Source: a virus
IMG/VR virus record: IMGVR_UViG_3300034121_001395
Length of the DNA stretch: 64,000 nucleotides
Reading direction: 5' to 3' (one strand)
The notes under the pieces are model-generated. The model made no database searches. It was given only the letters and a program-made list of their open reading frames with translations, and was not told the DNA's origin. Both the position numbers and the translations under genes were made by a program. Of the stretch, positions 5,585-51,355 are shown piece by piece. The first letter of the stretch is position 1; each line of letters opens with the position of its first letter.

Positions 5585-6319
5585 ATGACAATAGAGCAAA
5601 TACGACAATATTTTGTAGGTCAATACAAAAGCAAAAATTTTGTAGTTGATAAGAGTGGTGTCACTACACTCGAGCTTGTTGGTGCAAGCTTTTGTGCCAA
5701 TGAACCAAGTATCTTTGGTGAAATTAACGATGACTATATTCAACGCGAGTTGGAATGGTATCTTTCGCAAAGTCTCTATGTAAAAGACATTCCAGGTGTT
5801 GTTCCTAAAATTTGGCAAGACGTTTCAAGCCGAGACGGCAAAATCAATTCAAATTATGGTTATCTTGTTTTCAACTCTGAAAACTACGCGCAATATGAAA
5901 ATGTGTTAATGGAATTGTCTCGTTCACCAAACAGTCGCCGAGCTGTCATGATCTATACTCGACCAAGCATGCATAGCAACTGGTGTGTAGGCGGCATGAG
6001 TGACTTTATTTGCACAAATGCAGTGCAATATATGATTCGTAATGGCGCCCTGCAGGTTGTTGTACAGATGCGTAGCAATGATATTTGGGCAGGTTATCGT
6101 AATGACTATGCGTGGCAAAAGTATGTTCAAGACAAACTCGTCTATGATTATAATTGTGGTACCAAAAAAGCCGATAAGATTGTCCCAGGAAATATCATTT
6201 GGCAAGTCGGCAGTCTACATGCATACGAAAATCAATATTATTTGATTGATCATTATTCTAAAACTGGAGAATTCTACATTTCTAAAAAAGATTATAATAT
6301 TTTGTATAATAAATCTTAA
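5585..6319 (+). CDS. dCMP hydroxymethylase (T4 gp42-like, thymidylate synthase fold)
   Basis: SRRAVMIYTRPSMH, DFICTN, MRSNDIWAGYRNDYAWQ, GSLHAY; Asp in RND is the dCMP-type residue. Confidence 0.85.
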   Translation: MTIEQIRQYFVGQYKSKNFVVDKSGVTTLELVGASFCANEPSIFGEINDDYIQRELEWYLSQSLYVKDIPGVVPKIWQDVSSRDGKINSNYGYLVFNSENYAQYENVLMELSRSPNSRRAVMIYTRPSMHSNWCVGGMSDFICTNAVQYMIRNGALQVVVQMRSNDIWAGYRNDYAWQKYVQDKLVYDYNCGTKKADKIVPGNIIWQVGSLHAYENQYYLIDHYSKTGEFYISKKDYNILYNKS

Positions 6320-8590: not shown

Positions 8591-9655
8591 ATGTCATCTG
8601 TACTTGAAAAATTAAAAAAGAATTGCAGAATTAAAGAAGCTGATGTCCTTGCTGACAGCGACTTTTATTCTGAAAAAGACGTTACATCTACATCTGTGCC
8701 AATGGTCAACGTTGCTCTAAGTGGCAGTATTGATGGTGGTCTGACGAGTGGTCTTACTGTACTTGCCGGCCCATCAAAGCACTTTAAGACGAGCTTTGCA
8801 TTGCTTATGGCAGGTGCATACCTTAAAAAACATACTGACGCGTGCCTTATGTTTTATGACAGCGAATTTGGTTCTCCTCAGCAATACTTTGAAAGCTTTG
8901 GAATTGACACTTCACGAGTGCTGCATATTCCAATTAAAAACATTGAAGAACTTAAGTTTGATATTGTTAATCAACTTGAGCAGATGGATCGCAAAGATAA
9001 AGTAATTATTGTTATTGACAGTGTTGGTAATCTTGCAAGTAAGAAGGAATTGGAAGATGCGATGAATGAAAAGAGTGTTGCTGACATGACTCGCGCTAAA
9101 GCTCTTAAAGGATTGTTTCGTATGGTAACCCCCTACCTGACAATGAAAAACATTCCACTTCTTGCAATCAATCATACCTATCAGACTCAAGAAATGTTTA
9201 GCAAGGCTGTGGTGAGCGGTGGAACAGGAATTATGTATAGCGCTGACAATGTTTGGATTATTGGTCGTCAGCAAGATAAAGATGGCACTGAAATCCAAGG
9301 TTATCACTTTATCATCAATGTTGAAAAGAGTCGATTTGTAAAAGAAAAGAGCAAGATTCCAATCAGCGTTAGTTGGGAAGGTGGAGTTCAAAAATGGAGT
9401 GGGTTGCTTGATATTGCGCTTGAAGGCGGTTTCGTAGTCAAGCCTAAAAATGGCTGGTATACTGCATACGATCCAGCGACAAAAACTGAACTTACAGGAA
9501 ACCTTCGCGCAGCACAAACGCTGACAAAAGAATTTTGGGAAACCATCTTTACAAAGACAACATTTGCCTCACATATCAAACAAAAGTATACAATTGGTCT
9601 GCGAGACATGATTGATGGCGGCTCAGACCCAATTGTAGAAAACGAAGAAGTCTGA
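8591..9655 (+). CDS. uvsX: RecA-like recombinase UvsX
   Basis: AGPSKHFKT Walker A, FYDSEFG, DSVGNLASKKE. Confidence 0.95.
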   Translation: MSSVLEKLKKNCRIKEADVLADSDFYSEKDVTSTSVPMVNVALSGSIDGGLTSGLTVLAGPSKHFKTSFALLMAGAYLKKHTDACLMFYDSEFGSPQQYFESFGIDTSRVLHIPIKNIEELKFDIVNQLEQMDRKDKVIIVIDSVGNLASKKELEDAMNEKSVADMTRAKALKGLFRMVTPYLTMKNIPLLAINHTYQTQEMFSKAVVSGGTGIMYSADNVWIIGRQQDKDGTEIQGYHFIINVEKSRFVKEKSKIPISVSWEGGVQKWSGLLDIALEGGFVVKPKNGWYTAYDPATKTELTGNLRAAQTLTKEFWETIFTKTTFASHIKQKYTIGLRDMIDGGSDPIVENEEV

Positions 9656-32602: not shown

Positions 32603-32972
32603 TATAAAAACACTTATCTCAAGCACAGAAGATTCTGCAACTATGAGTTCAAATTTGGTGATGTCATTCGGGTAGTTGAATATAGCAAGTCGCCGCCACA
32701 GGAAAGCGAAGAGCAAGCCCCAAAGCAACCATTCGACCATGAGGCAATGTCAGAAGCTGAGTACCAAAGTTGGGTGAGGCTATCTAACGCTAACATGCAA
32801 CTTCGCTGTTAATATGCTTAATGGCGAGGGTGGTAATATCATCCCAATAAATAACCAAATTTACCATACCGTCCATTAATACTTGCCATGCCTCTCAACG
32901 ATGCGCACTTTGGTGGGTATTTTTGCATAAAAAATCATAAATTTGGCATTTTTAGACCTTGGAAGCACTAGA

Positions 32973-33072
32973 TTTCTCTATACGGGGCCTAACTTCGGGA
33001 CCTTTTTTCACTTTTTTGAAAAAAGTTGTGTACTTTCTCTGCATTTTAGTGTATAATGACCATGTAAGCAAC
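32973..33072 (+). promoter_or_regulatory. early promoter cassette, copy 2 (upstream of the ncRNA array)
   Basis: TTTCTCTATACGGGG...TTTTTTCACTTTTTTGAAAAAAGTTGTGTAC...TATAAT. Confidence 0.85.
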
Positions 33073-33229
33073 ACAACACAATATGAAAGAAACATTAGGA
33101 ATTTTCATCGGAATCAATGCAGCAGTTTGGTTCGTCATCTTTATCCAAACCATGAACGGTAGTTGGTAATCACAAGAGTTGAACATCTTTTAAAAAGCTT
33201 TGAGCTTCGGGCACTCGTTAAACCGCTCT

Positions 33230-33262
33230 AGAGAGTTGAGCATCTCTTAAAACTGCTCACCA
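33230..33262 (+). ncRNA. small H-type pseudoknot ending in CCA
   Basis: AGAGA/TCTCT stem; loop TGAGCA pairs with downstream TGCTCA. Confidence 0.5.
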
Positions 33263-33279
33263 CTTTCAAAAAACAATTT

Positions 33280-33442
33280 TCCCCTGAAGTATTGGCCCGC
33301 CAGTAGATCTTCTAGAACAAACACTAAGTGAATCCCGGGCATGTGACCAGTTGGAGTTAACGCCACCGAAACATGAATAGCTTAGTCAATGATCTAGAAT
33401 GAACTCTGGGAGACGAGGTTCGACTCCTCGCGGGGGACACCA
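33280..33442 (+). ncRNA. tRNA-like RNA with long internal domain
   Basis: TCCCCTG/CGGGGGA acceptor, CGAGG-TTCGACT-CCTCG T-arm, 3' CCA. Confidence 0.6.
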
Positions 33443-34088
33443 CTTTCAAAAACAAATTTAAGGTAATGCCCCAATCGTAAGAGACTGCAGCTCGAGAAGA
33501 TAAGAAAATTAAATGTGCAGATGGACTCACACAGCCGTTTCTGATGATAGGAAGACCCCAGGATTGCTCAGCAATAGTAAGGAAACCGAACATGCCCGTG
33601 TTTCATCAGCAACAAAAGTTAGGCACGGGAAATTTTCAAAAAACAAATTTACTGATGGAGGTTGCAAACGAAATCAGAGATAAAAGGAACGAGCCTCTTG
33701 TCCGCAGGGAGAGCGTTAAAAAGTTTCATGGTGCAATTCCATAGCCTGCGGTGCCATTTCCAAAAAAAACAACAACAAATACAAATAGAATAACGACATA
33801 AGATTTTAAAACCTTCTCTATCGCAAAGCCAGTAGTCATGACCTGGTAGTGGCCTATAAGAATATTATTCAAAAGTCCGTTCAATTCGGAGGTGATAGAA
33901 ACCTGGGAGGCTCCTCAGCCCCAATTGAAGCTGTAAAGCACTGAGGATACTTTTAAACAACAAACACCAAACCATGAAACTATCGCATTTTTATCCACTG
34001 GCCATCTTGATATCACTATTTTTTGGAGTCTGTATGATTGGATTCATCAGCGCTCTGTTCAAAGCAGTCTATCTTTTCTTTAACTAAT

Positions 34089-34421
34089 ATGAACACACAA
34101 CGAACAATACTAAAGGTTGAAAATAACGAGGCCGGAAAAACAATAATCTTTCATTTGAGGCGTGAGGTAAAAACTCATAATTTGAGAGAGCGTTTGAAAG
34201 AGATGGAGTCTCCAGACTATGTTGGAAAATTTAAACGAGTTGACCTCTATGGCCGCCTTGGAAAAAATAATCCAAATCGTCACAAATATTCTATTTCTAG
34301 TCGTCGCTCAATCTTTCGCAGCCACACTAGAATTCGTTTAGAAGATGCATCACACATTGCAGTCTATGTAAACAACGTCGTGCGCTCTAAGTTTGGTGGT
34401 TATACTCTCGTCTGTTCATGA
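34089..34421 (+). CDS. conserved phage hypothetical protein
   Basis: RVDLYGRLGKNNPN motif. Confidence 0.65.
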   Translation: MNTQRTILKVENNEAGKTIIFHLRREVKTHNLRERLKEMESPDYVGKFKRVDLYGRLGKNNPNRHKYSISSRRSIFRSHTRIRLEDASHIAVYVNNVVRSKFGGYTLVCS

Positions 34422-35014
34422 TTCCGGTTTTTCCCTCTCATAAGACTACACTCGTATTGACTGCAGGCTTTCAGCCGTGTGGATTTTTTTCTGCTCGGTC
34501 TGCAATTCGAAACATGATGGTTGGAGGCGTAAAAGCCTATGACCAGTATGGAAACATACGAGACTGGAGCAGCTGGATCGCGAACGACGATCATCTCAGT
34601 CCAAACAACCCTGCGCTGAGAAGTGTCGACACGCTGTGGGCAATTCCTACAATCGTGGTGGTTCCTGGCTATTTTGGTCACTACAAGCAAGGCAAAAAGC
34701 AGCCGCGCGCAATCAACCTTCGTCAGCTGTATTATATCTATGGAGGAGAATGTCAATATTGTCTAAAGAAAATTCCATACACTTCTGCGACTCGCGATCA
34801 TCTCATTCCTCGCAGTCGTGGAGGCGGCAACAACGACGACAATATCGTTCTCTCTTGCAAAAAGTGTAATACCAAAAAATCAAACAAGTTTCCATATTTC
34901 AACATTCACGGCTCTGAAGTAAAGCCTAAGATGCTAAAAGACATTGAGTTTAGCGCGCTTAGTGAAAAAGTTACGATTCGTGAAGAGTGGAAGGATTTTT
35001 TACAATATAAATAA
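34418..35014 (+). CDS. McrA-like HNH endonuclease
   Basis: CQYC, TRDHLIPRSRGG, NIVLSCKKCNTKK. Confidence 0.85.
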   Translation: MIPVFPSHKTTLVLTAGFQPCGFFSARSAIRNMMVGGVKAYDQYGNIRDWSSWIANDDHLSPNNPALRSVDTLWAIPTIVVVPGYFGHYKQGKKQPRAINLRQLYYIYGGECQYCLKKIPYTSATRDHLIPRSRGGGNNDDNIVLSCKKCNTKKSNKFPYFNIHGSEVKPKMLKDIEFSALSEKVTIREEWKDFLQYK

Positions 35015-35302
35015 ATCACTTATAGATAAAAAAGATGTTTACATGTGAGAGAGTTTAGTGTATAATGTCTCTGTAAGCAACAAGAAACAAAAGTTTCATA
35101 ACTGAACGCCACATCAACTGCTACTGAAAGTTGAGAACGTCCGTGGTTGTACGGCTTGGATCACTCAGTGATGCGATGTCAAAGGTTTGTATATAGGAGT
35201 TTTCGGTCCCTATAAAAAAGTCATAGTTGATTGCAGTTGCAGCGCACATTTTTTGCGCTCCTCATTCGACATGCCAATATGATTAACCGATAAATTTTCA
35301 AT

Positions 35303-35376
35303 CGCGAGTTAGAGTAGTGGTTACTCGGCAGTCTCATAAGCTGCATAGGTCGGTTCGATTCCGACACTCGCAACCA
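35303..35376 (+). tRNA. tRNA-Met(CAT), initiator-like
   Basis: cloverleaf, C1:A72 mismatch, CCA. Confidence 0.85.
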
Positions 35377-35384
35377 TTTTATAT

Positions 35385-35480
35385 GCTAGAGTGTCCTGAA
35401 TTGGTTAAAGGTCCTTCTTTATAAGGGGGTAGAATCGGTCATCGAGCCGTATGTGGGTTCGAGTCCCACCTCTAGTACCA
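35385..35480 (+). tRNA. tRNA with TAT anticodon (Ile) and long variable arm
   Basis: CCTTC-TTTATAA-GGGGG anticodon arm; 23-nt variable region; CCA. Confidence 0.8.
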
Positions 35481-35484
35481 CTTT

Positions 35485-35558
35485 CGCACGTTGGCAGAGA
35501 AGTCATGCAGTGGTCTGCAAAACCGCCTAGTCCAGAGCGTTACTGGAACGTGCGTCCA
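35485..35558 (+). tRNA. tRNA-Cys(GCA)
   Basis: cloverleaf, U73, atypical T-loop AGCGTTA. Confidence 0.85.
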
Positions 35559-35570
35559 TCTACAACCCAT

Positions 35571-35645
35571 GCTCACGTCGTCTAATGGTTAGGACTTGCG
35601 GTTTTCATCCGCACAATCGGGATTCGATTTCCCGCGTGAGTACCA
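35571..35645 (+). tRNA. tRNA-Glu(TTC)
   Basis: cloverleaf with CCA. Confidence 0.9.
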
Positions 35646-35659
35646 ATAAATAATACACC

Positions 35660-35887
35660 ATGAAAACTATATTTCGCACCTCAACATACGTCAAGGTCGG
35701 TCAATTTTACCTTTCAATAAAACTGCCACTTAAGAGCGGTGAACGTCGCTTTAGAGTCACTCGTGATCATTCACGCTTTCAAAACTATTTTGAAATGCAC
35801 GCTCTAGGATTTACATGCGGTCGCATGTGGTCTACTCATGCCCAACGTGCGAGTGAGAAGCGTTGGTTAAATTCACTCGAAGAATAA
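35660..35887 (+). CDS. hypothetical protein
   Basis: ORF within tRNA cluster. Confidence 0.55.
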   Translation: MKTIFRTSTYVKVGQFYLSIKLPLKSGERRFRVTRDHSRFQNYFEMHALGFTCGRMWSTHAQRASEKRWLNSLEE

Positions 35888-35891
35888 CACT

Positions 35892-36263
35892 ATGAAAATA
35901 TACATTGAACGATGGATGACTGAAACTGTCCACACTGGAAAGCTGTTTAGCATAGACACCGAAAAGTTGAGAGAACTCTATGATGAATATGCACATCTCT
36001 CTGACGAAGAACTCGTTGAACGCGTGAGCGAAGATTCTGAATGCGGCGAGCTTGATTGGCATGAACAGTACGAAGACGCCCTGTCTGCATGCGACATTTC
36101 AGGAGAAAACAGTCTAGTAAAGCTTCACACATCAGAGACCCTGCAAGACAATCTAGAATGGGGTGTCTGGCACAGAGGTCGTCTTACTCTCAATGAAGAA
36201 TATATAGACATTGATACAGAAAATTTTGAAGAGTTTGTCTCTAAAATTCCTCACTATAAATAA
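35892..36263 (+). CDS. acidic hypothetical protein
   Basis: ORF within tRNA cluster. Confidence 0.6.
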   Translation: MKIYIERWMTETVHTGKLFSIDTEKLRELYDEYAHLSDEELVERVSEDSECGELDWHEQYEDALSACDISGENSLVKLHTSETLQDNLEWGVWHRGRLTLNEEYIDIDTENFEEFVSKIPHYK

Positions 36264-36271
36264 CTTTACAA

Positions 36272-36346
36272 TCCGACTTAGCTCAGCGGCAGAGCGGGTG
36301 CCTGTTAAGCACTAGGTCCATGGTTCGATCCCATGAGTCGGAGCCA
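36272..36346 (+). tRNA. tRNA-Asn(GTT)
   Basis: cloverleaf with CCA. Confidence 0.92.
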
Positions 36347-36354
36347 ATTTTTAC

Positions 36355-36429
36355 GCCTCCTTAGCACAGTGGTAGTGCAGCTCATTTGTAATGAGCAGGT
36401 CGTCCGTTCGAATCGGACAGGAGGCTCCA
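36355..36429 (+). tRNA. tRNA-Thr(TGT)
   Basis: cloverleaf with CCA. Confidence 0.92.
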
Positions 36430-36438
36430 GTTTAAAGT

Positions 36439-36515
<77 letters not shown>

Positions 36516-36522
36516 TATTTTA

Positions 36523-36599
36523 CGGGATGTAGCTCAGCCTGGTAGAGCGCTGCGTTTGGGACGCAGATGTCGCATGTTCGAATCGTGTCATCCCGACCA
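36523..36599 (+). tRNA. tRNA-Pro(TGG)
   Basis: cloverleaf with CCA. Confidence 0.92.
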
Positions 36600-36635
36600 T
36601 TTATAGCTCAGTTGGTAATTTTTATAAATAATAAT

Positions 36636-37063
36636 ATGCTTCATAAACATCATATTATTCCACGACACATGGGAGGTACAGACGATCCCTCTAATATAAT
36701 TGAATTAACTATTGAGCAGCACGCAGATGCTCATAAAAAATTATATGAGCAACATGGTAAACTAGAAGATTATGTTGCTTGGAAAGGATTATCTGGACAA
36801 ATCAACAGAGAAGAAGTTATTGCTTATAAATGTTCTATGGGCGGTCATGCCAATAAAGACGTGCCAAAAAGCGAAGATCATAAAGCAAAAATTGCTATAA
36901 CATTAACGGGAACAACTCATACAGAGGAAAGAAAAAATAATATTGCTAAATCTGCCATTGGTAATAAAAATTCAAAAAATCATTCTAGCGAAGAATATAA
37001 ACAAAAACAAAGCGATGCAATGAAACAAGCTTGGGCTAGAAGAAAATTAAAACAATCAACAAA

Positions 37064-37073
<10 letters not shown>
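36636..37073 (+). CDS. HNH homing endonuclease with NUMOD3-like repeats
   Basis: HKHHIIPRHMGGTDDPSNIIELTIEQHADAH; SEDHKAKIA; TATAAATA 36623-36630. Confidence 0.85.
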
Positions 37074-37138
<65 letters not shown>

Positions 37139-37145
37139 TTTTTAA

Positions 37146-37223
37146 GGAGCGGTAGCTCAGTCTGGTTAGAGCGCCAGCCTGTCACGTTGGAGGTCGCGGG
37201 TTCGAGCCCCGTCCGCTCTGCCA
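37146..37223 (+). tRNA. tRNA-Asp(GTC)
   Basis: cloverleaf with CCA. Confidence 0.92.
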
Positions 37224-37231
37224 ATTTAATT

Positions 37232-37307
37232 GGTGGTTGTAGTTCAATGGTAGAGCCCCAGATTGTGATTCTGGTTGTTGCGGGTTCGAATCCGGTAACC
37301 TCCACCA
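37232..37307 (+). tRNA. tRNA-His(GTG), chimeric 3' end
   Basis: His-type 5' part with G-1; 3' end identical to tRNA-Ala so acceptor stem mispairs. Confidence 0.65.
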
Positions 37308-37311
37308 TTAT

Positions 37312-37386
37312 ACGTCATTGGTGTAACGGTAAGCACAAAGGTCTCCAAAACCTTTTGTCTCAGTTCGAATCTGAGGTGACGTGCCA
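37312..37386 (+). tRNA. tRNA-Trp(CCA)
   Basis: cloverleaf with CCA. Confidence 0.9.
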
Positions 37387-37387
37387 T

Positions 37388-37461
37388 AGAGGTATTGTGT
37401 AACGGTAGCACCACAGATTTTGATTCTGTTTGTCGAGGTTCGAATCCTTGTACCTCTACCA
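37388..37461 (+). tRNA. tRNA-Gln(TTG)
   Basis: cloverleaf with CCA. Confidence 0.9.
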
Positions 37462-37466
37462 ACTTT

Positions 37467-37577
37467 GCCGCTAGAGAGGTGCACGGGCTCCATGCCCGGT
37501 ATATAGATACAGATGACGTGCAGGACTGCGTATGCGGGTGCGTACGGGAATGTATCTATGTCGCCTCTCTAGTCGGC
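37467..37577 (+). ncRNA. unassigned branched structured RNA
   Basis: GCCG-CTAGAGAGG/CCTCTCTAG-CGGC and ATAGATACA/TGTATCTAT helices. Confidence 0.6.
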
Positions 37578-37589
37578 TCAATTTTCAAT

Positions 37590-37669
37590 CGCGGGGCAGT
37601 CAGTAGTGGTGCTGAACTAGTCTCATAAGCTAGGCTTCGGTGTGGGTTCGACTCCCACCCCCGCAACCA
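37590..37669 (+). tRNA. tRNA-Met(CAT), second initiator-like
   Basis: CGCGGGG/CCCCGCA acceptor with C1:A72. Confidence 0.8.
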
Positions 37670-37751
37670 ATTTTTAGCAATGGCAATCAGTGAGTTAAAT
37701 GCGCATAAGGCTTGAGATTCTGTGTGGGTCAATAACCATACATTGCTAAAT

Positions 37752-37837
37752 GGGTAGATGCCCGAGTGGCTAAAGGGGGCGGTCTGTAAAATCGCTGGCT
37801 TACGCCTACGCTGGTTCGAATCCAGCTCTGCCCACCA
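37752..37837 (+). tRNA. tRNA-Tyr(GTA)
   Basis: cloverleaf, long variable arm, CCA. Confidence 0.92.
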
Positions 37838-37955
37838 TCTTTGTATAAGTAATTTGCAACCGAGCTCAAGAAGAGTGGTGATGCGCATAGGTGATTAGGT
37901 TCACGCCTTCGGGTTAATATGACAAGTATGCCTGCGTAAGCTCTTCATATATTTT

Positions 37956-38055
37956 CAATGTATAGTGTAGTGGTAGCACGCCCCAAGCAAGGGGTTTCTT
38001 ATCCGATAGGATAGGCGACAACGCCGAGGTGATGGTTCGATTCCATCTGCATTGT
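37956..38055 (+). ncRNA. tRNA-like RNA with extra hairpins
   Basis: acceptor, D-arm and T-arm intact; three hairpins in between; no CCA. Confidence 0.6.
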
Positions 38056-38064
38056 TTAATTTTC

Positions 38065-38119
38065 GCGGGATTTGTATAATGGTAATACGCCATCCTTCCA
38101 AGTTGGAGTCATCAGTTCG
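38065..38119 (+). pseudogene. truncated tRNA-Gly(TCC)
   Basis: stops at T-loop GTTCG, fused directly to TATAAATA. Confidence 0.8.
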
Positions 38120-38136
38120 TATAAATAAATACATAT

Positions 38137-38904
38137 ATGAACTACAAAAAGATTTATGATAATCTGATAAAATATAGACAACAAAATATTTTATCAGATG
38201 GATATATTGAACGACACCACATTGTGCCTCGATCACTTGGTGGATCTGATGAAGAAACAAATATAGTGGCTTTAACAGGTCGTGAACATTATGTTGCTCA
38301 TTTACTTCTAGCAAGATATAATAAATGCAGTCAAACTATATATGCACTTTGTATGATGCAAATAAAAAATATTACGAACGAAGGGCGCCCTCTTATTAAA
38401 TCTGGTAGAATGTATGAATGGGCTCGTAAAGAATTTGCTAAATATGTAGCAAAAAATAATATGATTACCTCAAAAGGAGAACAAAATAGTCAATTTGGAA
38501 CTCGTTGGATATGTAATATAACTTTAAAAGAAAATCGTAAAATTTCTAAAGATAGTTTGATTCCAGACGGATGGATTGCCGGTCGCAATAAATGGAAACA
38601 TAAATACTTAACGCGAACAGCAAAGGGTTCTAAAGAACATAGAAATCGAGTAAGAGACGCACGTATAGGAAAAAAACTAAGTATTGAAACAAAAGAAAAA
38701 ATATCTAAAGCAAATAAAAAATCTCGTTTAGGCAATGAATCTTTAACTGGTAGGATTTGGATTAACAATGGAACAATTAACAAAGCAATACTAAAAAATG
38801 AATCTATACCAGAAGGATTTATTAAAGGAAAACTTTCGCGTCATAAGTGTTACGGCAGCACATTAGACTTCCACTCTGAAGGCGTGAGTTCGACCCTCAC
38901 ATGA
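38137..38904 (+). CDS. HNH homing endonuclease (MobE-like N-terminus)
   Basis: MNYKKIYDNLI, ERHHIVPRSLGG...NIVALTGREHYVAH; GTRWI/GRIWINNG repeats. Confidence 0.88.
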   Translation: MNYKKIYDNLIKYRQQNILSDGYIERHHIVPRSLGGSDEETNIVALTGREHYVAHLLLARYNKCSQTIYALCMMQIKNITNEGRPLIKSGRMYEWARKEFAKYVAKNNMITSKGEQNSQFGTRWICNITLKENRKISKDSLIPDGWIAGRNKWKHKYLTRTAKGSKEHRNRVRDARIGKKLSIETKEKISKANKKSRLGNESLTGRIWINNGTINKAILKNESIPEGFIKGKLSRHKCYGSTLDFHSEGVSSTLT

Positions 38905-38911
38905 CGCACCA
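38838..38911 (+). tRNA. tRNA-Gly(TCC) overlapping the HNH 3' end
   Basis: complete cloverleaf, CCA, A73. Confidence 0.85.
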
Positions 38912-38918
38912 ATTTCAA

Positions 38919-39023
38919 TGGGGTGAAGCTTAGCGGCTTCTATTCTCTTTATACCCTCTACGCTTGATGGGTGCACACTAGACAGCGCATGGTTTTAATA
39001 ATGACATGAGAATACCCCCACCA
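38919..39023 (+). ncRNA. unassigned structured RNA ending in CCA
   Basis: TGGGG/CCCCA and TATTCTC/GAGAATA helices, internal hairpins. Confidence 0.5.
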
Positions 39024-39024
39024 T

Positions 39025-39207
39025 TTTTTCCCTGCCATTGTAGGCATAGACACTGCAATGAGCGATTTGACAGAGAGCGGGTTAGCAACCCGATGATGAC
39101 AAACGTAATCCGACGCAAATTAAACTAGTCTTGGAGTCGCTACCAAGATGAAATAGTCACTGTGTTTCTTCAAAGCAACATCGTTGCTTCATCGGTAGTG
39201 GGGAAAA
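39025..39207 (+). ncRNA. unassigned multi-hairpin RNA
   Basis: TTTTCCC/GGGAAAA closure; CGGGTT/AACCCG, TCTTGG/CCAAGA, AAGCAAC/GTTGCTT hairpins. Confidence 0.55.
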
Positions 39208-39211
39208 CACT

Positions 39212-39283
39212 TTGCGAGAGGGATCATACGGAGATCGCTAGGCCCATAGTCTAGAGTGGAGGTTAAAGCCCTCCCCCTCGCAA
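39212..39283 (+). pseudogene. degenerate tRNA-like element (CAT loop)
   Basis: four arms can be drawn, but C33, T-loop TTAAAGC and no CCA. Confidence 0.45.
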
Positions 39284-39386
39284 TTCGTATCATGCGCGAA
39301 TCCAAATATGTCATGACGCAGCTAGGTGTGGTTCCTAGATAGCCCCAGCCCTGGGTGAGTGTAGCAGCAATCTGTTATGGGCAAAT

Positions 39387-39579
39387 ATTTAACGGGTATG
39401 TCGGCTTAGAAGTAGCCATCATATAAGAAGTGGAACTAAACGTGAAGAAGAGGTAATTCGTATGGATACAATTCAATCAAGCCATACACCCTTGCAAAAG
39501 GTACTGCGATACTCGTGAATTGCGTTTCATAGGACGAGCAATCGTAACTCCTTTGGTGTAACAACAACACCCGTTAAAT
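39387..39579 (+). ncRNA. RNA mimicking 23S rRNA H43-H44 (L11-binding GTPase-associated centre)
   Basis: ATGTCGGCTTAGAAGTAGCCATCAT and GTGTAACAAC inside an 11-bp closing helix. Confidence 0.75.
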
Positions 39580-39698
39580 TCATTTTCTATCGTGCGTTTT
39601 GATCGCCCGAAGTATTCAGAGAAAACAGACAGGAAAATGAGTGTAGCAGCAATCTGTCATGGGCAAATTTTCACAAAAATAAGTCCTGGAGGTCAGTT

Positions 39699-39798
39699 TT
39701 TCTCTATACGGGGCTTAACTTCGGGACCTTTTTTCACTTTTTTGAAAAAAGTTGTGTACTTTCTGTGGGTTTTATGCTATAATAACCATGTAAGCAAC
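39699..39798 (+). promoter_or_regulatory. early promoter cassette, copy 3
   Basis: near-identical to copies 2 and 4. Confidence 0.85.
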
Positions 39799-39810
39799 AC
39801 CAACCACAAT

Positions 39811-40023
39811 ATGAAAAACAAATCTTCAATATTTCTCTTATTAGGACGCGTAGACTATGAAGGCGACGACGTATTAGGAGCCTATAGCTCACTTAAAAAA
39901 GCAAATTGCGCACTAGATGCTTATAAGGCTAAGGTTGATGCTGATCGTGTCAACAATCATTATGAAAATACTGCGTATGATGATTATGTTATAAATGAAT
40001 GTGAGGTCAATGCTGAAGTCTGA
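39811..40023 (+). CDS. small early hypothetical protein
   Basis: DYEGDDVLGAYSSLKKA. Confidence 0.6.
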   Translation: MKNKSSIFLLLGRVDYEGDDVLGAYSSLKKANCALDAYKAKVDADRVNNHYENTAYDDYVINECEVNAEV

Positions 40024-40047
40024 TCTTTTGAGAAACTCCAATACAAT

Positions 40048-40236
40048 ATGAAACAGGACATCGATCAAAAGTTTACTGTCACTTGGAATTCTCCAACGCA
40101 AGCAAAGCGCAAGACAGTTATGTTCCGTAAGCAGAAAGACGCAGAGGAATTCTACGAAGAGAAGAAGGTCGCAAAGAGATCCCCTGCTCTATACATTACT
40201 GAAAAGATTACCTCTACGCGTCGGCTCAAAGCTTAA
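40048..40236 (+). CDS. hypothetical protein
   Basis: packed ORF. Confidence 0.55.
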   Translation: MKQDIDQKFTVTWNSPTQAKRKTVMFRKQKDAEEFYEEKKVAKRSPALYITEKITSTRRLKA

Positions 40237-40276
40237 CACATTAGTTGAGCACTAATAAACTCCACCACATCTTTAT

Positions 40277-40552
40277 ATGACTATCACTGAATCAATTGGC
40301 AAGAAAGTAAGGCATGGCTCTCACGGCTATCAAAATGAGGAGACAATCAAGCAAATCTCCTTTTTAAAAGACTCGGTAGAGATTGAGTTTGAATCGGGTG
40401 TCTTTTCGACCATGTCACCGGGTGAGTTTGGACACTTTATGCGATATGAAGAACTCTCTTATAAAGAGAAGCATCATGAAGGTTCAAGTTATATTTTCAG
40501 TTATATTTTCTTTTGTGACACTGAAAACCAATGGTATTCACTCATCGACTAA
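40277..40552 (+). CDS. hypothetical protein
   Basis: packed ORF. Confidence 0.55.
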   Translation: MTITESIGKKVRHGSHGYQNEETIKQISFLKDSVEIEFESGVFSTMSPGEFGHFMRYEELSYKEKHHEGSSYIFSYIFFCDTENQWYSLID

Positions 40553-40575
40553 AGCAACATCAACACTAAGACCGC

Positions 40576-40782
40576 ATGAAAACAAAACAATATTCGATTG
40601 TATTTCACACAGCTGAATGCTATATAGAAGCAATGACGTTAAGCGACATTCACACCTATAACGATGCCGATGCTGCAGAGATTGAGCTTTTCTGGAACAG
40701 CAAACATAAACGTGACAACGCGGTTCGTCTTCTTAAGCAACATGACATCGTTGTCGACACATATGACGGCGTACCAATATGA
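40576..40782 (+). CDS. hypothetical protein
   Basis: packed ORF. Confidence 0.55.
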   Translation: MKTKQYSIVFHTAECYIEAMTLSDIHTYNDADAAEIELFWNSKHKRDNAVRLLKQHDIVVDTYDGVPI

Positions 40783-40790
40783 AAACACTC

Positions 40791-40865
40791 GGGCATATGA
40801 TGTAATGGATAGCATCAGGGTCTTCTAAATCCTTCGCCTAGGTTCGAATCCTAGTATGCCCGCCA
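40791..40865 (+). tRNA. tRNA-Arg(TCT)
   Basis: cloverleaf with CCA. Confidence 0.92.
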
Positions 40866-40968
40866 AACTAATAAATAAAATTTCGGTACTGTGGTGGTAT
40901 CGCTTACAGGAGCATGAGGTCCCTAAAGTCGAACAAACATCTCGTCGACAACCTCTAAATTTTATAAT

Positions 40969-41053
40969 GGCTGTGTGATGAAATCGGTAAACATTGCGAA
41001 CTTAAAATTCGTTGCCTTATGGCTTGTCGGTTCGAGTCCGACCACAGCTACCA
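40969..41053 (+). tRNA. tRNA-Leu(TAA)
   Basis: cloverleaf, variable arm, CCA. Confidence 0.92.
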
Positions 41054-41065
41054 CCTTAAAAAATT

Positions 41066-41290
41066 ATGAATGAAGAACGCATAAAAACCTTGATTGAGGC
41101 AGAAGTAGAAGCGCTGCTCTCTGAAATAACTGAACTCAGAGAGAGAATAAGTAAACTTGAGCATGAATCATTTCATCTCAAAACTCAGAACATGAATAAT
41201 GCTGCTAAGCATGAGTATATCGGTCGTTGGAATCATAAAAAGATTGAAGATAAAACCAAGGTGACTTGCAACATAAGTAAACTAATTTAG
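41066..41290 (+). CDS. coiled-coil hypothetical protein
   Basis: 74-aa ORF. Confidence 0.55.
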   Translation: MNEERIKTLIEAEVEALLSEITELRERISKLEHESFHLKTQNMNNAAKHEYIGRWNHKKIEDKTKVTCNISKLI

Positions 41291-41338
41291 AATGATCTAG
41301 GACCTGAGCATGTCTTGAAAAGGTTTAACATAATAAAA

Positions 41339-41621
41339 GGGCTTGTAGCTCAGCGGTAAGAGCAGTCGACTCGATAGGGTCTTCTTATTAGAAATAGTAA
41401 GTTAGCAGAACTTAAATTCAGGGAACGCTTAACGGGTAATGCCGATGCCAATCCTGAGCGAAACCTCGAAAGAGGGACGTGCAGAGACTATAATAGTTCA
41501 ATCTTAACAGGTTATGCTGAAGATTAAGGGATAGTCCAGACCACAAACTGAAAAGGTAGTGAAAACTATAGTGGTAAGCATAATCGATTGGTCGCAGGTT
41601 CGAATCCTGCCGGGCCCACCA
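41339..41621 (+). tRNA. tRNA-Ile2(CAT) split by a group I intron
   Basis: exons 41339-41371 and 41579-41621 join to GTCGA-CTCATAA-TCGAT anticodon arm. Confidence 0.88.
41372..41578 (+). mobile_element. group I self-splicing intron (IC3-like, 207 nt, no ORF)
   Basis: P AAATTCAGGGAA, Q AATCCTGAGC, R GTGCAGAGACT, S GATAGTCC; P1 with U.G at splice site; terminal G. Confidence 0.9.
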
Positions 41622-41638
41622 TTATAAATAAATTTTTT

Positions 41639-41728
41639 GGGTGAATGGCAGAGCGGTTTATTGCACTTGTCTTGAAAACAAGAGTGGCTGAAAGGTCACC
41701 GTGGGTTCAAATCCTACTTCACCCGCCA
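41639..41728 (+). tRNA. tRNA-Ser(TGA)
   Basis: cloverleaf, long variable arm, G73. Confidence 0.92.
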
Positions 41729-41822
41729 TTTTTGGAACGTTGGCTGAGTGGCTGAAAGGTCACCGTGGGTTCAAATCCTACTTCACCCGCCATTTTTGGA
41801 ACGTTGGCTGAGTGGCTGAAAG
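41682..41822 (+). repeat. exact 64-bp tandem duplication between the two Ser tRNAs
   Basis: units start 41682 and 41746; bounded by GAGTGGCTGAAAG. Confidence 0.9.
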
Positions 41823-41887
41823 CACTCCCTTGCTAAGGGAACGTAGGGGTGACTCTACCGTAGGTTCAAATCCTACACGTTCCGCCG
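41798..41887 (+). tRNA. tRNA-Ser(GCT)
   Basis: cloverleaf; ends GCCG rather than GCCA. Confidence 0.88.
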
Positions 41888-41907
41888 ACACATATAGATA
41901 CTTTTAT

Positions 41908-41982
41908 GGGGAGTTAGCTCAGCGATAGAGCATCTCGTTTACACCGAGTCGGCCGGGGGTTTGAATCCCTCACTCCCCACCA
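41908..41982 (+). tRNA. tRNA-Val(TAC)
   Basis: cloverleaf with CCA. Confidence 0.88.
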
Positions 41983-42015
41983 CTTCTCCCCCTGAAAAAC
42001 AAAATGAACTATAAT

Positions 42016-42744
42016 ATGAAAAAACAAACACAAATCGTTAAAATTGGTATGATTGCAGCACTTGCTGCTCTTAACTATGCATACGCTGGTACAATCGAAG
42101 ACGCTCCTTCAGCATTCACGCCGGTGATGCTTGAAACTGGCTACTCTTCTGATAAGGTCTGGCGTGGTGCTGATCTAGGCGCAAATGAAGCAAATGCAAT
42201 CGTCACAACGACAACTGAACTTCCTGCGGACGTTTCGTTGGCTTTGAGCGCTGACTATGCAAACGCTGAAACAACTGGGAAGGACGAAGCTACTGAGCTG
42301 TCTGCAATCTTCTCTAAGAGTATTGCTGACTATCTCGTATCTTTGAGCTATACCTGGTATTCGCAGGACTATGCAGGCCAGGAAGGACAAGCGCAAGAAG
42401 CTGGCTTGACTGTATCACGTGCAGTTGGTCCAATCGATCTTTCGCTTACTCAGTATATGAGTATTGTAGGTGATAACAATGCTTACAGCGAACTTGCTGC
42501 AACATACAGTGATGACTTTGGATCTTCATTGATGCTTGACTTTCGTGCTGAGCTTGGTTATCTCGCTCAAGAAGGACAGTGCACTCATTTTGAGACCACT
42601 ATGTCGACTGACATTCCAGTTGTGCAAGGTGTGACCGCTGTCCCGTTTGTTTCGTACTCACTCGGTCTTGATGACTCGGTTGGCGTGCATTCAGACATGA
42701 AGAATCTTTTCTTCGGTGGAATTGAGTTTAAGAAGTCGTTCTAA
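42016..42744 (+). CDS. outer-membrane beta-barrel / putative porin (Gcw_chp/TorF-like)
   Basis: signal peptide AYA, SSDKVWRG, amphipathic strands, C-terminal Phe. Confidence 0.7.
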   Translation: MKKQTQIVKIGMIAALAALNYAYAGTIEDAPSAFTPVMLETGYSSDKVWRGADLGANEANAIVTTTTELPADVSLALSADYANAETTGKDEATELSAIFSKSIADYLVSLSYTWYSQDYAGQEGQAQEAGLTVSRAVGPIDLSLTQYMSIVGDNNAYSELAATYSDDFGSSLMLDFRAELGYLAQEGQCTHFETTMSTDIPVVQGVTAVPFVSYSLGLDDSVGVHSDMKNLFFGGIEFKKSF

Positions 42745-42763
42745 TAGATAATAGAATAAAAAC

Positions 42764-42800
42764 AAAAACGGAGCCTTCTCTATGTTGGCTCCGTTTTTTT
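42764..42800 (+). terminator. intrinsic terminator
   Basis: ACGGAGCC/GGCTCCGT plus T run. Confidence 0.8.
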
Positions 42801-42806
42801 ATTATA

Positions 42807-42890
42807 GGGCAAGTGGTGTAATGGTAGCCACGCTAGATTTAGGATCTAGTGCAGTGATGCGTGAGGGTTCGAGTCCCTCCTTGCCCACCA
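42807..42890 (+). tRNA. tRNA-Leu(TAG)
   Basis: cloverleaf with CCA. Confidence 0.92.
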
Positions 42891-51028: not shown

Positions 51029-51355
51029 GGGTGTGACATGGTTTCGACATGACATTTGAAGCAATATATGCAATGCACAGTCTGCACGACTCTAAGTGCA
51101 AGAGAAAAACGAAAAAGATACACTAGCTCTCGCGGCATAACCGCACCAACGCATCAACTCCGATAACATGCGTTGGTACAGAGGAGGGTCGGATAATTGT
51201 ATATCGAAAATATAATAGACTCATCGATTCGAATATTGATGCGGGATTGCTCGACAACAATCTAGGTTGTGATTGTCCTAACATCAATCAATAAATTGTA
51301 GAAGTATATTGCCGAGAAGTCATGGACTGGAGTTCGATCCTCCACACATCCACCA
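51029..51355 (+). ncRNA. ssrA: tmRNA
   Basis: GGGTGTG/CACATCC-ACCA with G3:U, T-arm, pk1, tag ORF ending LALAA*. Confidence 0.92.

Follow-up and report, generated by a model that had tools for sequence, protein, structure and literature searches.

A Modular Array of Structured and tRNA-Like Small RNAs Ahead of the tRNA Genes of an Uncultured Freshwater T4-Like Phage

Results

Five Conserved Non-coding RNA Units

The interval 33170–33950 of a 64,000-nt stretch of viral DNA (IMG/VR record IMGVR_UViG_3300034121_001395, one strand, hereafter the window) carries five non-coding RNA units, which keep their folds in other phages, come and go as modules and have homologues placed among the tRNA genes of relatives. 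These units probably form a cassette of small RNAs that would be co-transcribed, matured by host tRNA-processing enzymes and carried in the accessory repertoire of a freshwater T4-like clade. An earlier note, made from the letters of this DNA, had proposed such a polycistronic cassette released by tRNA-type processing; the RNA cassette itself is supported by the comparisons below, and the processing is plausible, judged from acceptor/T-arm stacks, spacers and synteny. The source is a large uncultured freshwater T4-like phage, whose IMG/VR relatives reach 173,760 bp (97% complete) and whose virion protein is 43–46% identical to the counterparts in T4-like cyanomyoviruses. Every gene around the array lies on the + strand, and ARAGORN called 21 tRNAs at 35303–42890 of the window, in a region dotted with HNH-type endonuclease genes. 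The units and the linkers between them are listed here in order.

33174–33262, + strand: unit 1, three tandem H-type pseudoknots (A 33174–33200, B 33201–33228, C 33231–33258), then ACCA
33258–33279, + strand: linker 1, CACCA followed by CTTTCAAAAAACAATTT
33280–33442, + strand: unit 2, with acceptor 33280–86/33431–37, T arm 33414–30, a long internal helix and the tail CACCA
33438–33459, + strand: linker 2, a 91% copy
33460–33632, + strand: unit 3, a 185-nt two-domain RNA, with the domain I hairpins at 33462–33535
33541–47/33603–09 (outer helix), 33563–75 (variable hairpin) and 33595–600/33624–29 (pseudoknot), + strand: further elements of unit 3
33628–33650, + strand: linker 3, a 73% copy without a preceding CCA
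33651–33756, + strand: unit 4, with a 5′ domain (33651–33701), minihelix stem 33702–08/33745–51, T-like arm 33727–43 and the tail TGCCA
33757–33817, + strand: A-rich spacer, which includes a linker "variant"
33818–33898, + strand: unit 5, with acceptor 33818–24/33892–98, D stem 33828–32/33843–47, a mini-hairpin and T arm 33875–91

Homologues were collected from 51 loci found through the HNH protein encoded downstream of the array, from the 20-kb tRNA regions of 15 relatives and from further loci found by motif scans, all drawn from IMG/VR and metagenomes. Two covariance models (CMs), R1 for unit 5 and R2 for unit 3, were scanned over the fetched loci. MAFFT misplaces the unit 5 acceptor, the closing pair of unit 3 and the pseudoknot of the L108 lineage, and these were counted by hand or by script instead. 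A blastn search of 32900–34300 against 50,697 cultured-phage records gave no match.

Only short, unconserved open reading frames (ORFs) were found in 33170–33950, and none of them matched PHROGs. In the same interval, ARAGORN and Rfam 15 (searched over spans of 64 kb, 2.5 kb and 0.8 kb, at gathering score or E ≤ 10) returned only a sub-threshold match to the DUF2815 motif at 33904–33976, so that the earlier description of about 780 nt without a credible ORF was borne out. No cloverleaf with a 7-nt anticodon loop was called there by ARAGORN or by the Rfam tRNA model (E ≤ 10). In units 2 and 5, a 7-bp acceptor stacks on a T arm whose loop fits TTCRANY, and the loop of unit 4, TGCAATT, is non-canonical. 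The products would not be decoding tRNAs, since none has an anticodon loop.

Unit 3, a Two-Domain Pseudoknotted RNA

Unit 3 is the best supported of the five. Seven distinct homologues, 73–82% identical, were obtained, and the loops GAUGAUAGGAAGACCCCAGG and AGUAAGGAAACCGAA are invariant among them. Standard pairs occupy 95.7% of the pair cells, vs. 25–45% after the partners are slid; compensatory changes were found in 12 of the 30 pairs, with a covariation score of 0.393 vs. at most 0.118, and RNAalifold independently detected covariation in 15 of 37 pairs. C-G, G-C and U-A all occur as the closing pair of the CUGAUGA/UCAUCAG helix, and the pseudoknot CCCGUG/CACGGG becomes GGUAUGU/ACAUGCC in L108. 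Eight members were recovered with R2, including the divergent L101 (69 bits), which retains domain I and has its outer helix (ACAACA/UGUUGU) at the same position, with a different inner domain. A 17-mer scan of 185,579 prokaryote species-representative genomes yielded 13 loci, none of which was confirmed by a hidden Markov model, and the metagenome scan gave three true matches.

Two other readings of this unit were rejected. The string CUGAUGA...GAAAC recalls a hammerhead ribozyme, but its "C3" covaries as a base pair (C-G, G-C, U-A), helix II is impossible and no Rfam match was obtained. The Shine-Dalgarno-like AAGGAAACCGAACAUG recalls a coding start, but its AUG is AUA or UCU in relatives.

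Two further elements were observed near unit 3. A tRNA-like RNA that ARAGORN does not call lies directly 3′ of it in two lineages (L066, 1706–1835; L116, reverse strand, ~9281–9397, in transcription orientation) and has a 7-bp acceptor, a D arm, an extended "anticodon" stem of 11–12 bp with a large loop, a long variable arm and a T arm, without CCA. Upstream of unit 3, a conserved non-coding element, AACCAACTRAGGGGAA ... CCCCTYGGTTTCTTTCCG, is shared by two distant lineages (L108, ~1990–2070; L116, ~8880–8965, in transcription orientation) and may be another structured RNA of tRNA regions.

Units 4 and 5

Unit 5 is a cloverleaf-like RNA of 81–82 nt with no CCA, in which a hairpin of 4–5 bp with a 3–4-nt loop takes the anticodon position. 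Among the three lineages (the window, L112 and L108), the acceptor, D, mini-hairpin and T stems have each diverged in sequence, and all four still pair; the D loop UAGUCAUGAC is invariant and the segment UGGYYYAUAAG is conserved. The T arm has four pairs and a canonical TTCAATT loop. With R1, members of unit 5 scored 82–101 bits vs. at most 21 bits for true tRNAs. A scan of IMG/VR for the D loop returned, beyond the three known lineages, only chance matches in coding sequence.

The T-like arm of unit 4 also has four pairs (module scan). In the homologue from a relative, G011 (L091/L122/L123), CCGCAGG/CCUGCGG is GCGCAGG/CCUGCGU and AUGG/CCAU is ACGG/CCGU, so that pairing persists in both stems despite changes in either strand (C-G to G-U, U-A to C-G); the CCA is absent from this homologue. 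A 5′ pseudoknot in unit 4 (CUGAU/AUCAG, GGAGG/CCUCU) was dropped, being absent from the G011 homologue and weakened by the variant L124.

Unit 1, Three Tandem Pseudoknots

The pseudoknots of unit 1 are about 28 nt each and consist of a 4–5-bp stem, a loop with GAGC, GAAC or GGGC, an A-rich strand and a GCUC or GCUU that pairs back to the loop. Copies A and C are 90% alike (a direct repeat), and B is divergent. Both stems of pseudoknot A covary across L118, L117 and L140, with AGAG/CUCU, AAGAG/CUUUU and GGAUG/CAUCU in S1 and GAGC/GCUU, GAAC/GUUU and AGCC/GGCU in S2. The terminal ACCA is not a conserved CCA end, since ATCA, GGA or AGA stands there in relatives. Unit 1 begins 4 nt past the stop codon of an ORF for a 28-amino-acid (aa) peptide, which it also follows in L014; the pseudoknots of L130 and L140 form part of a downstream gene's leader.

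A role of pseudoknot A in stop-codon read-through was discarded, as the read-through frames are not conserved, and the Rfam PreQ1 model, tried for a preQ1-I riboswitch, was unmatched at E ≤ 10 in an 821-nt search. Single motifs of the same kind were found on the + strand at 40240–40270 and 41298–41326, with the differing stems ATTAG/CTAAT and AGGAC/GTCTT. The first of them ends in ...CUCCACCA and the second lies just upstream of a tRNA at 41339–41617, whose ends are 279 nt apart.

Unit 2, a tRNA-Like RNA

Unit 2 has the T arm CGAGG-TTCGACT-CCTCG, a 5-bp stem with a canonical loop according to the module scan and the fold. It occurs in a long form, in the window and in L129/L131, and in a short form of 102 nt, in L117, L118 and L130, where a 6-bp hairpin replaces the long helix; the anticodon position is thus taken by a long helix or a 12-nt loop. 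The long helix is compensated in L129/L131, in which UUCUAGA/UCUAGAA becomes UUCUAAAA/UUUUAGAA and CUAAG/CUUAG becomes CUAGU/ACUAG, and U-G/U-A changes occur in the acceptor among relatives.

The plan of unit 2 is that of the tRNA-like domain (TLD) of transfer-messenger RNA (tmRNA): the two ends of the RNA close a 7-bp acceptor, the D-analogue is single-stranded, a long helix substitutes for the anticodon arm, and there is a T arm as well as a 3′ CCA. Unlike the phage's own tmRNA, with its alanine-identity G3-U70, unit 2 has C3-G70 in all variants; it also lacks a tag reading frame and a pseudoknot ring, carries an extra nucleotide before the CCA and holds an internal helix of 40–100 nt with no conserved frame. 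It was not called as a tmRNA by Rfam or ARAGORN and shows no sequence likeness to the TLD of the phage's own tmRNA. No SmpB gene, considered as a possible partner for a TLD-like RNA, was found in G001, a record near-identical to the window, or in G002.

The true tmRNA of the phage is encoded at 51029–51355 (+ strand; Rfam 82 bits, G3-U70 acceptor) and was missed by ARAGORN in the window; its homologue in G011 was called, with the tag GKNNVVDSGLALAA. Beside the unit 4 homologue of G011, a 68-nt "TLD-only" RNA was also observed (L017 ~5975–6045, and L091, L122, L123), with the acceptor GGGCACU/GGUGUCC including G3-U70, a GGAGUUCGAC D-analogue, a short hairpin, GGAC, a T arm and ACCA. Rfam detects its T arm alone, and it looks like the tRNA-like domain of a tmRNA minus the mRNA part.

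The view of the earlier note that distinct structured RNAs, several of them tRNA-like, lie here agrees with these results, and the array is no degenerate spacer: compensatory base changes accompany the conservation of every unit in other phages, and the folds are kept across lineages. The pairings that it had named are all present. CTGATGA/TCATCAG, CCCGTG/CACGGG and the stems of unit 5 are backed by compensatory changes in relatives, and for CCGCAGG/CCTGCGG with its T-like arm, in unit 4, the pairing is kept in the only other lineage available.

Linkers and Modular Occurrence

The repeat finder returned the linker repeat CACCACTTTCAAAAAACAATTT at 33258–33279, with copies at 33438–33459 (91%) and 33628–33649 (73%). 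It takes the form CACCACTTTCAAAAA(A)CAA(A)TTT at 33258 and 33438 and a looser one at 33628, and only two copies of the exact 13-mer TTTCAAAAAACAA exist in 64 kb, each of them inside the array. A fourth linker had been described at 33757. This variant is a 2-mismatch match, and alone it is indistinguishable from the A-rich background, because the window holds 12 matches of such looseness vs. 10.2 expected; three A/U-rich copies are real and the fourth is not separable from that background. As had been noted, a CCA stands before three of the four, namely linkers 1 and 2 and the variant (33260–62, 33440–42 and 33754–56), and not before linker 3. Of the tRNAs outside the array, 20 of the 21 ARAGORN tRNAs of the window encode CCA, then (A/C)TTT-type spacers resembling the linkers.

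Phages about 95–99% identical in the flanks contain unit 1, the short 102-nt unit 2 and unit 4, and lack unit 3. The gap left by unit 3 in L001 and L009–L013 runs exactly from linker 2 to linker 3, and in the 97%-complete G002 the unit was found nowhere at BLAST sensitivity. Unit 5 is present in only one of the near-identical phages and absent from L009–L013. L130 and L131 show the order of the window inverted, with unit 2 ahead of pseudoknots B and C. Cassette exchange by recombination fits this pattern, because linker repeats bound the insertions and deletions.

Additionally, a direct repeat of about 20 nt, TAGGAACACCAATACAATAA, which is the leader of the downstream gene, flanks unit 2 and pseudoknots B and C in L130 (100–360). 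It is the footprint of a cassette insertion by recombination.

The array of the window lies 1.35 kb upstream of the first tRNA, and relatives have homologues of units 3, 4 and 5 set between tRNAs. In L171 the start of unit 3 is found 4 nt past the CCA of tRNA-Tyr (...CCACCA|ATTT), and in L110 its end comes about 4 nt ahead of tRNA-Lys; unit 4 follows tRNA-Met in G011, and unit 5 abuts tRNA-Pro, before or after it, in G027 and L108. Two oversized tRNAs were also observed on the + strand of the window: a 100-nt Rfam tRNA match at 37956–38055 (40.9 bits, uncalled by ARAGORN, no CCA) and a 96-nt tRNA-Ile(TAT) with an insertion at 35385–35480.

Promoter and Neighbouring Genes

The array is flanked by the following features.

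33020–33081, + strand: promoter-like element, with TATAAT at 33052–33057, a conserved upstream box and the conserved transcribed leader TGTAAGCAAC
33083–33169, + strand: ORF of a 28-aa hydrophobic peptide, which precedes the RNA array
33904–33973, + strand: hairpin and leader of the next ORF, with a weak likeness to the Rfam DUF2815 RNA motif
33974–34087, + strand: 37-aa hydrophobic ORF, no family match
34089–34421, + strand: conserved hypothetical protein of 110 aa, which in most relatives accompanies the HNH gene
34418–35014, + strand: 198-aa HNH nuclease of a generic kind (Pfam HNH, 54.6 bits; PHROG HNH and endonuclease VII families; PDB 4h9d)

A strong early promoter had been claimed ahead of the array. 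A conserved and recurring –10 element supports a promoter, with copies at 35054–35090 in the window and at least eight in G001 (75–89% identity). The –35 region is weak and matches at 3 of 6 positions only, hence the absence of the element from the consensus scan, and early expression is a presumption. The copies belong to a phage-specific promoter family (33020–33081, 35038–35090 and eight further sites in G001), in which the box AAAAGTTGTGTAC stands upstream of TATAAT and of the leader; by analogy with the MotA boxes of T4, a phage activator may bind there. The 28-aa peptide is kept in L014, L017 and L018, ahead of differing downstream content.

At the other end, the conserved hypothetical and HNH genes follow as described before, with the 37-aa ORF in front of them. 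The DUF2815 motif scored 18.9 bits at 33904–33976 vs. a gathering score of 41.2, and shares the GCCCC-AUUGAAG loop and an A-rich tail. The 110-aa protein was modelled by AF2 with a predicted local distance difference test (pLDDT) score of 80.7; Foldseek against PDB structures, the sole structure search, found nothing below E = 0.7, and PHROGs, Pfam and NCBIfam were unmatched. In every lineage a homologue of the HNH protein (53–99% identity) opens the tRNA region, irrespective of the upstream content. The RNA units, for their part, are found upstream of the HNH gene, 2–7 kb downstream of it or in loci with neither HNH gene nor tRNA. The HNH gene is a context gene outside the RNA cassette. The partnership of the RNAs with the HNH protein suggested in the earlier note is unsupported, because on the synteny check the units and this gene assort independently.

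Comparison With Known Systems

The closest known system is, by analogy, that of the T4 stable RNAs rnaC and rnaD, whose roles are unknown (PMC3014915). T4 is related to this phage through its virion proteins. Species 1 (rnaC, 139 nt) and species 2 (rnaD, 119 nt) are likewise non-tRNA small RNAs arranged head-to-tail with tRNA genes, and they lie beside the homing endonuclease gene segB in a tRNA cluster, as an HNH gene adjoins the array here; rnaC has a canonical T arm (CCGGGTTCGAATCCCGG), and an encoded ACCA follows rnaD. The array differs in having five units instead of two, with an anticodon-less cloverleaf, TLD-shaped mimics and pseudoknot arrays, and in its place after a peptide gene at the start of the tRNA region, with its units shuffled as cassettes. 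No homology of the units to the T4 locus (L087) was detected by nhmmer (E > 0.4) or by the models R1 and R2. A homology between rnaD and unit 3, considered on account of a common UGAUG...AGUAAGGAA, was likewise dropped, as nhmmer and the CM find nothing. As in T4, the array and its homologues are small non-tRNA RNA genes among the tRNA genes of a T4-like phage. The units are new families of the same kind, since no homology to rnaC or rnaD exists.

Thousands of candidate structured RNAs, tRNA-like ones included, were predicted in IMG/VR in the 2023 survey of Fremin and Bhatt, which lists 8,495 candidates (PMC10690425). Outside the phages, a likeness may exist to the tRNA-like structures of plant viruses (turnip yellow mosaic virus, TYMV, and tobacco mosaic virus, TMV), which have pseudoknotted acceptor arms and upstream pseudoknot domains: in pseudoknot C of unit 1 and in the copy at 40240, a helix between the loop and the 3′ end stands directly before ACCA, and three tandem pseudoknots lie beside a tRNA-like RNA. 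Here, however, genes of a DNA phage take the place of an RNA genome's 3′ end, relatives do not conserve the ACCA and no aminoacylation identity is evident. Unit 4, a structured 5′ RNA joined to a tRNA-like minihelix, could be released by RNase P in the manner of MALAT1-mascRNA or of mitochondrial tRNA punctuation. Those systems are eukaryotic or organellar, and the Rfam mascRNA model reached only 14.7 bits, on the T arm of unit 2.

Discussion

The acceptor/T-arm stack is the recognition unit of RNase P. The enzyme also accepts as substrates pseudoknots that carry a 3′ RCCA (PMC12710915). A single precursor diced by host enzymes is proposed because of the acceptor/T-arm stacks, the tRNA-like spacers and the tRNA-sized slots that the units occupy in relatives. 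One precursor would be transcribed from the phage promoter, with the array downstream of the 28-aa peptide gene, and cut by the tRNA-maturation enzymes of the host into discrete RNAs. Units 2, 4 and 5 would be cleaved by RNase P at their stacks; in the A/U-rich spacers of the tRNA type, RNase E, RNase Z or exonucleases would act, and the encoded CCA would protect some of the 3′ ends. The products would then most likely act in trans on the tRNA-handling machinery, as tRNA mimics and pseudoknotted RNAs, and at the DNA level the repeated linker would be the site of gain, loss and reordering of units by recombinational cassette exchange. The conserved loops suggest specific partners.

Several observations weigh against this account. 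The encoded CCA is conserved in unit 2 only; it varies in unit 1, is absent from the homologue of unit 4 and never occurs in unit 5. Even in unit 2 the tail is N-N-CCA, one nucleotide longer than in tRNA. Units 1 and 2 also occur in loci without a tRNA gene within 11–14 kb, so the tie to tRNA arrays is not obligate. The variant L124 of unit 4 carries two pair-breaking changes, unit 4 is based on two lineages and unit 5 on three, and the minimum free energy z-scores of single units (+0.65 to –1.7) are unremarkable and uninformative.

It is conceivable, though rather doubtful, that all the elements act in cis, with the tRNA-like modules serving as processing punctuation, the pseudoknots as stabilizers or translational elements that would determine ends and half-lives of the flanking small-ORF mRNAs (for the 28-aa peptide on the upstream side and for the 37-aa, 110-aa and HNH proteins on the downstream side), and the excised RNAs being functionless. 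Such a role would suit the position of the array between two small ORFs of one transcription unit, the start of unit 1 only 4 nt after the 28-aa ORF, which it follows again in L014, the pseudoknots in the downstream-gene leader of L130 and L140, and the place of unit 5 directly ahead of a leader hairpin similar to a known phage motif of 5′ untranslated regions. An acceptor/T-arm stack suffices for punctuation, yet unit 3 has invariant loops of 15–20 nt, and unit 5 keeps an invariant D loop and a conserved single-stranded segment though every stem has changed across lineages. Moreover, units of relatives lie between tRNA genes, with no mRNA to punctuate, and the absence of unit 3 leaves the flanking genes unchanged. 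Unlikely as a whole is an elaboration of the trans-acting idea, by which the array would be a mobile kit for RNA-based counter-defence or host takeover. Units 2, 4 and 5 as tRNA mimics and units 1 and 3 as pseudoknot RNAs would then serve as sponges or decoys in trans. Their targets would be binders of the tRNA elbow or acceptor (defence nucleases, tRNA-3′-end nucleotidyltransferase toxins, EF-Tu, SmpB, RNase P), and strain-specific combinations of units would arise through linker-mediated cassette exchange. Anticodon nucleases would not be among the targets of the units with the acceptor/T-arm plan, which could not decoy them because they have no anticodon loop.

The remaining alternatives are less probable still. 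Very little weight is given to unit 1 as a ToxI-like mimic of a type III antitoxin that would neutralize a host abortive-infection endoribonuclease. Three head-to-tail pseudoknots with A-rich linkers recall such antitoxins, and phages are reported to escape ToxIN by means of pseudo-ToxI repeats (Blower et al. 2012). The repeats, however, are not near-identical (A and C 90%, B divergent) and of a length unlike known families; no Rfam ToxI match was obtained; no ToxN- or AbiQ-like gene lies nearby, the neighbours being two small peptide ORFs, the 110-aa protein and the HNH protein; and single copies are scattered at 40240 and 41298. It is highly improbable that the units are functionless debris, that is, decaying tRNA or tmRNA pseudogenes with recombination spacers. 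These tRNA arrays are indeed recombination hot spots rich in HNH homing-endonuclease genes, and the units are dispensable between near-identical phages, but covariation already contradicts this reading to a large extent: every tested stem is kept by compensatory changes across lineages 73–82% identical, the loops are invariant, and identical architectures occur in phages whose HNH proteins share only 53–57% identity. The faintest prospect of all is that the downstream HNH nuclease uses the RNAs as guides or cofactors, as IscB does HEARO/omega-RNA. They do lie upstream of the HNH gene, and the best NCBIfam matches of its HNH domain are the HNH domains of Cas9 and IscB; the IscB model nevertheless gave 38.8 bits vs. 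a cut-off of 175, the protein has 198 aa with an HNH domain only and no RuvC domain, no Rfam HEARO match was found, and the independent assortment of units and HNH gene speaks against it as well.

The species 1 and 2 RNAs of T4 have been without an assigned function for about fifty years. The locus described here shows that relatives of T4 carry a much richer and modular set of such RNAs, several of them with clear covariation-supported folds and none of them in Rfam 15. Structure determination and protein pull-downs have well-defined targets in unit 3, with its 185 nt, two domains, pseudoknot and invariant loops, and in the anticodon-less cloverleaf of unit 5; near-isogenic phages that either have or lack unit 3 or unit 5 provide a natural comparison. 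If the units are only processing signals, the finding would be of modest interest. If they are trans-acting tRNA mimics, it would introduce a class of host manipulation in which DNA phages use RNA.

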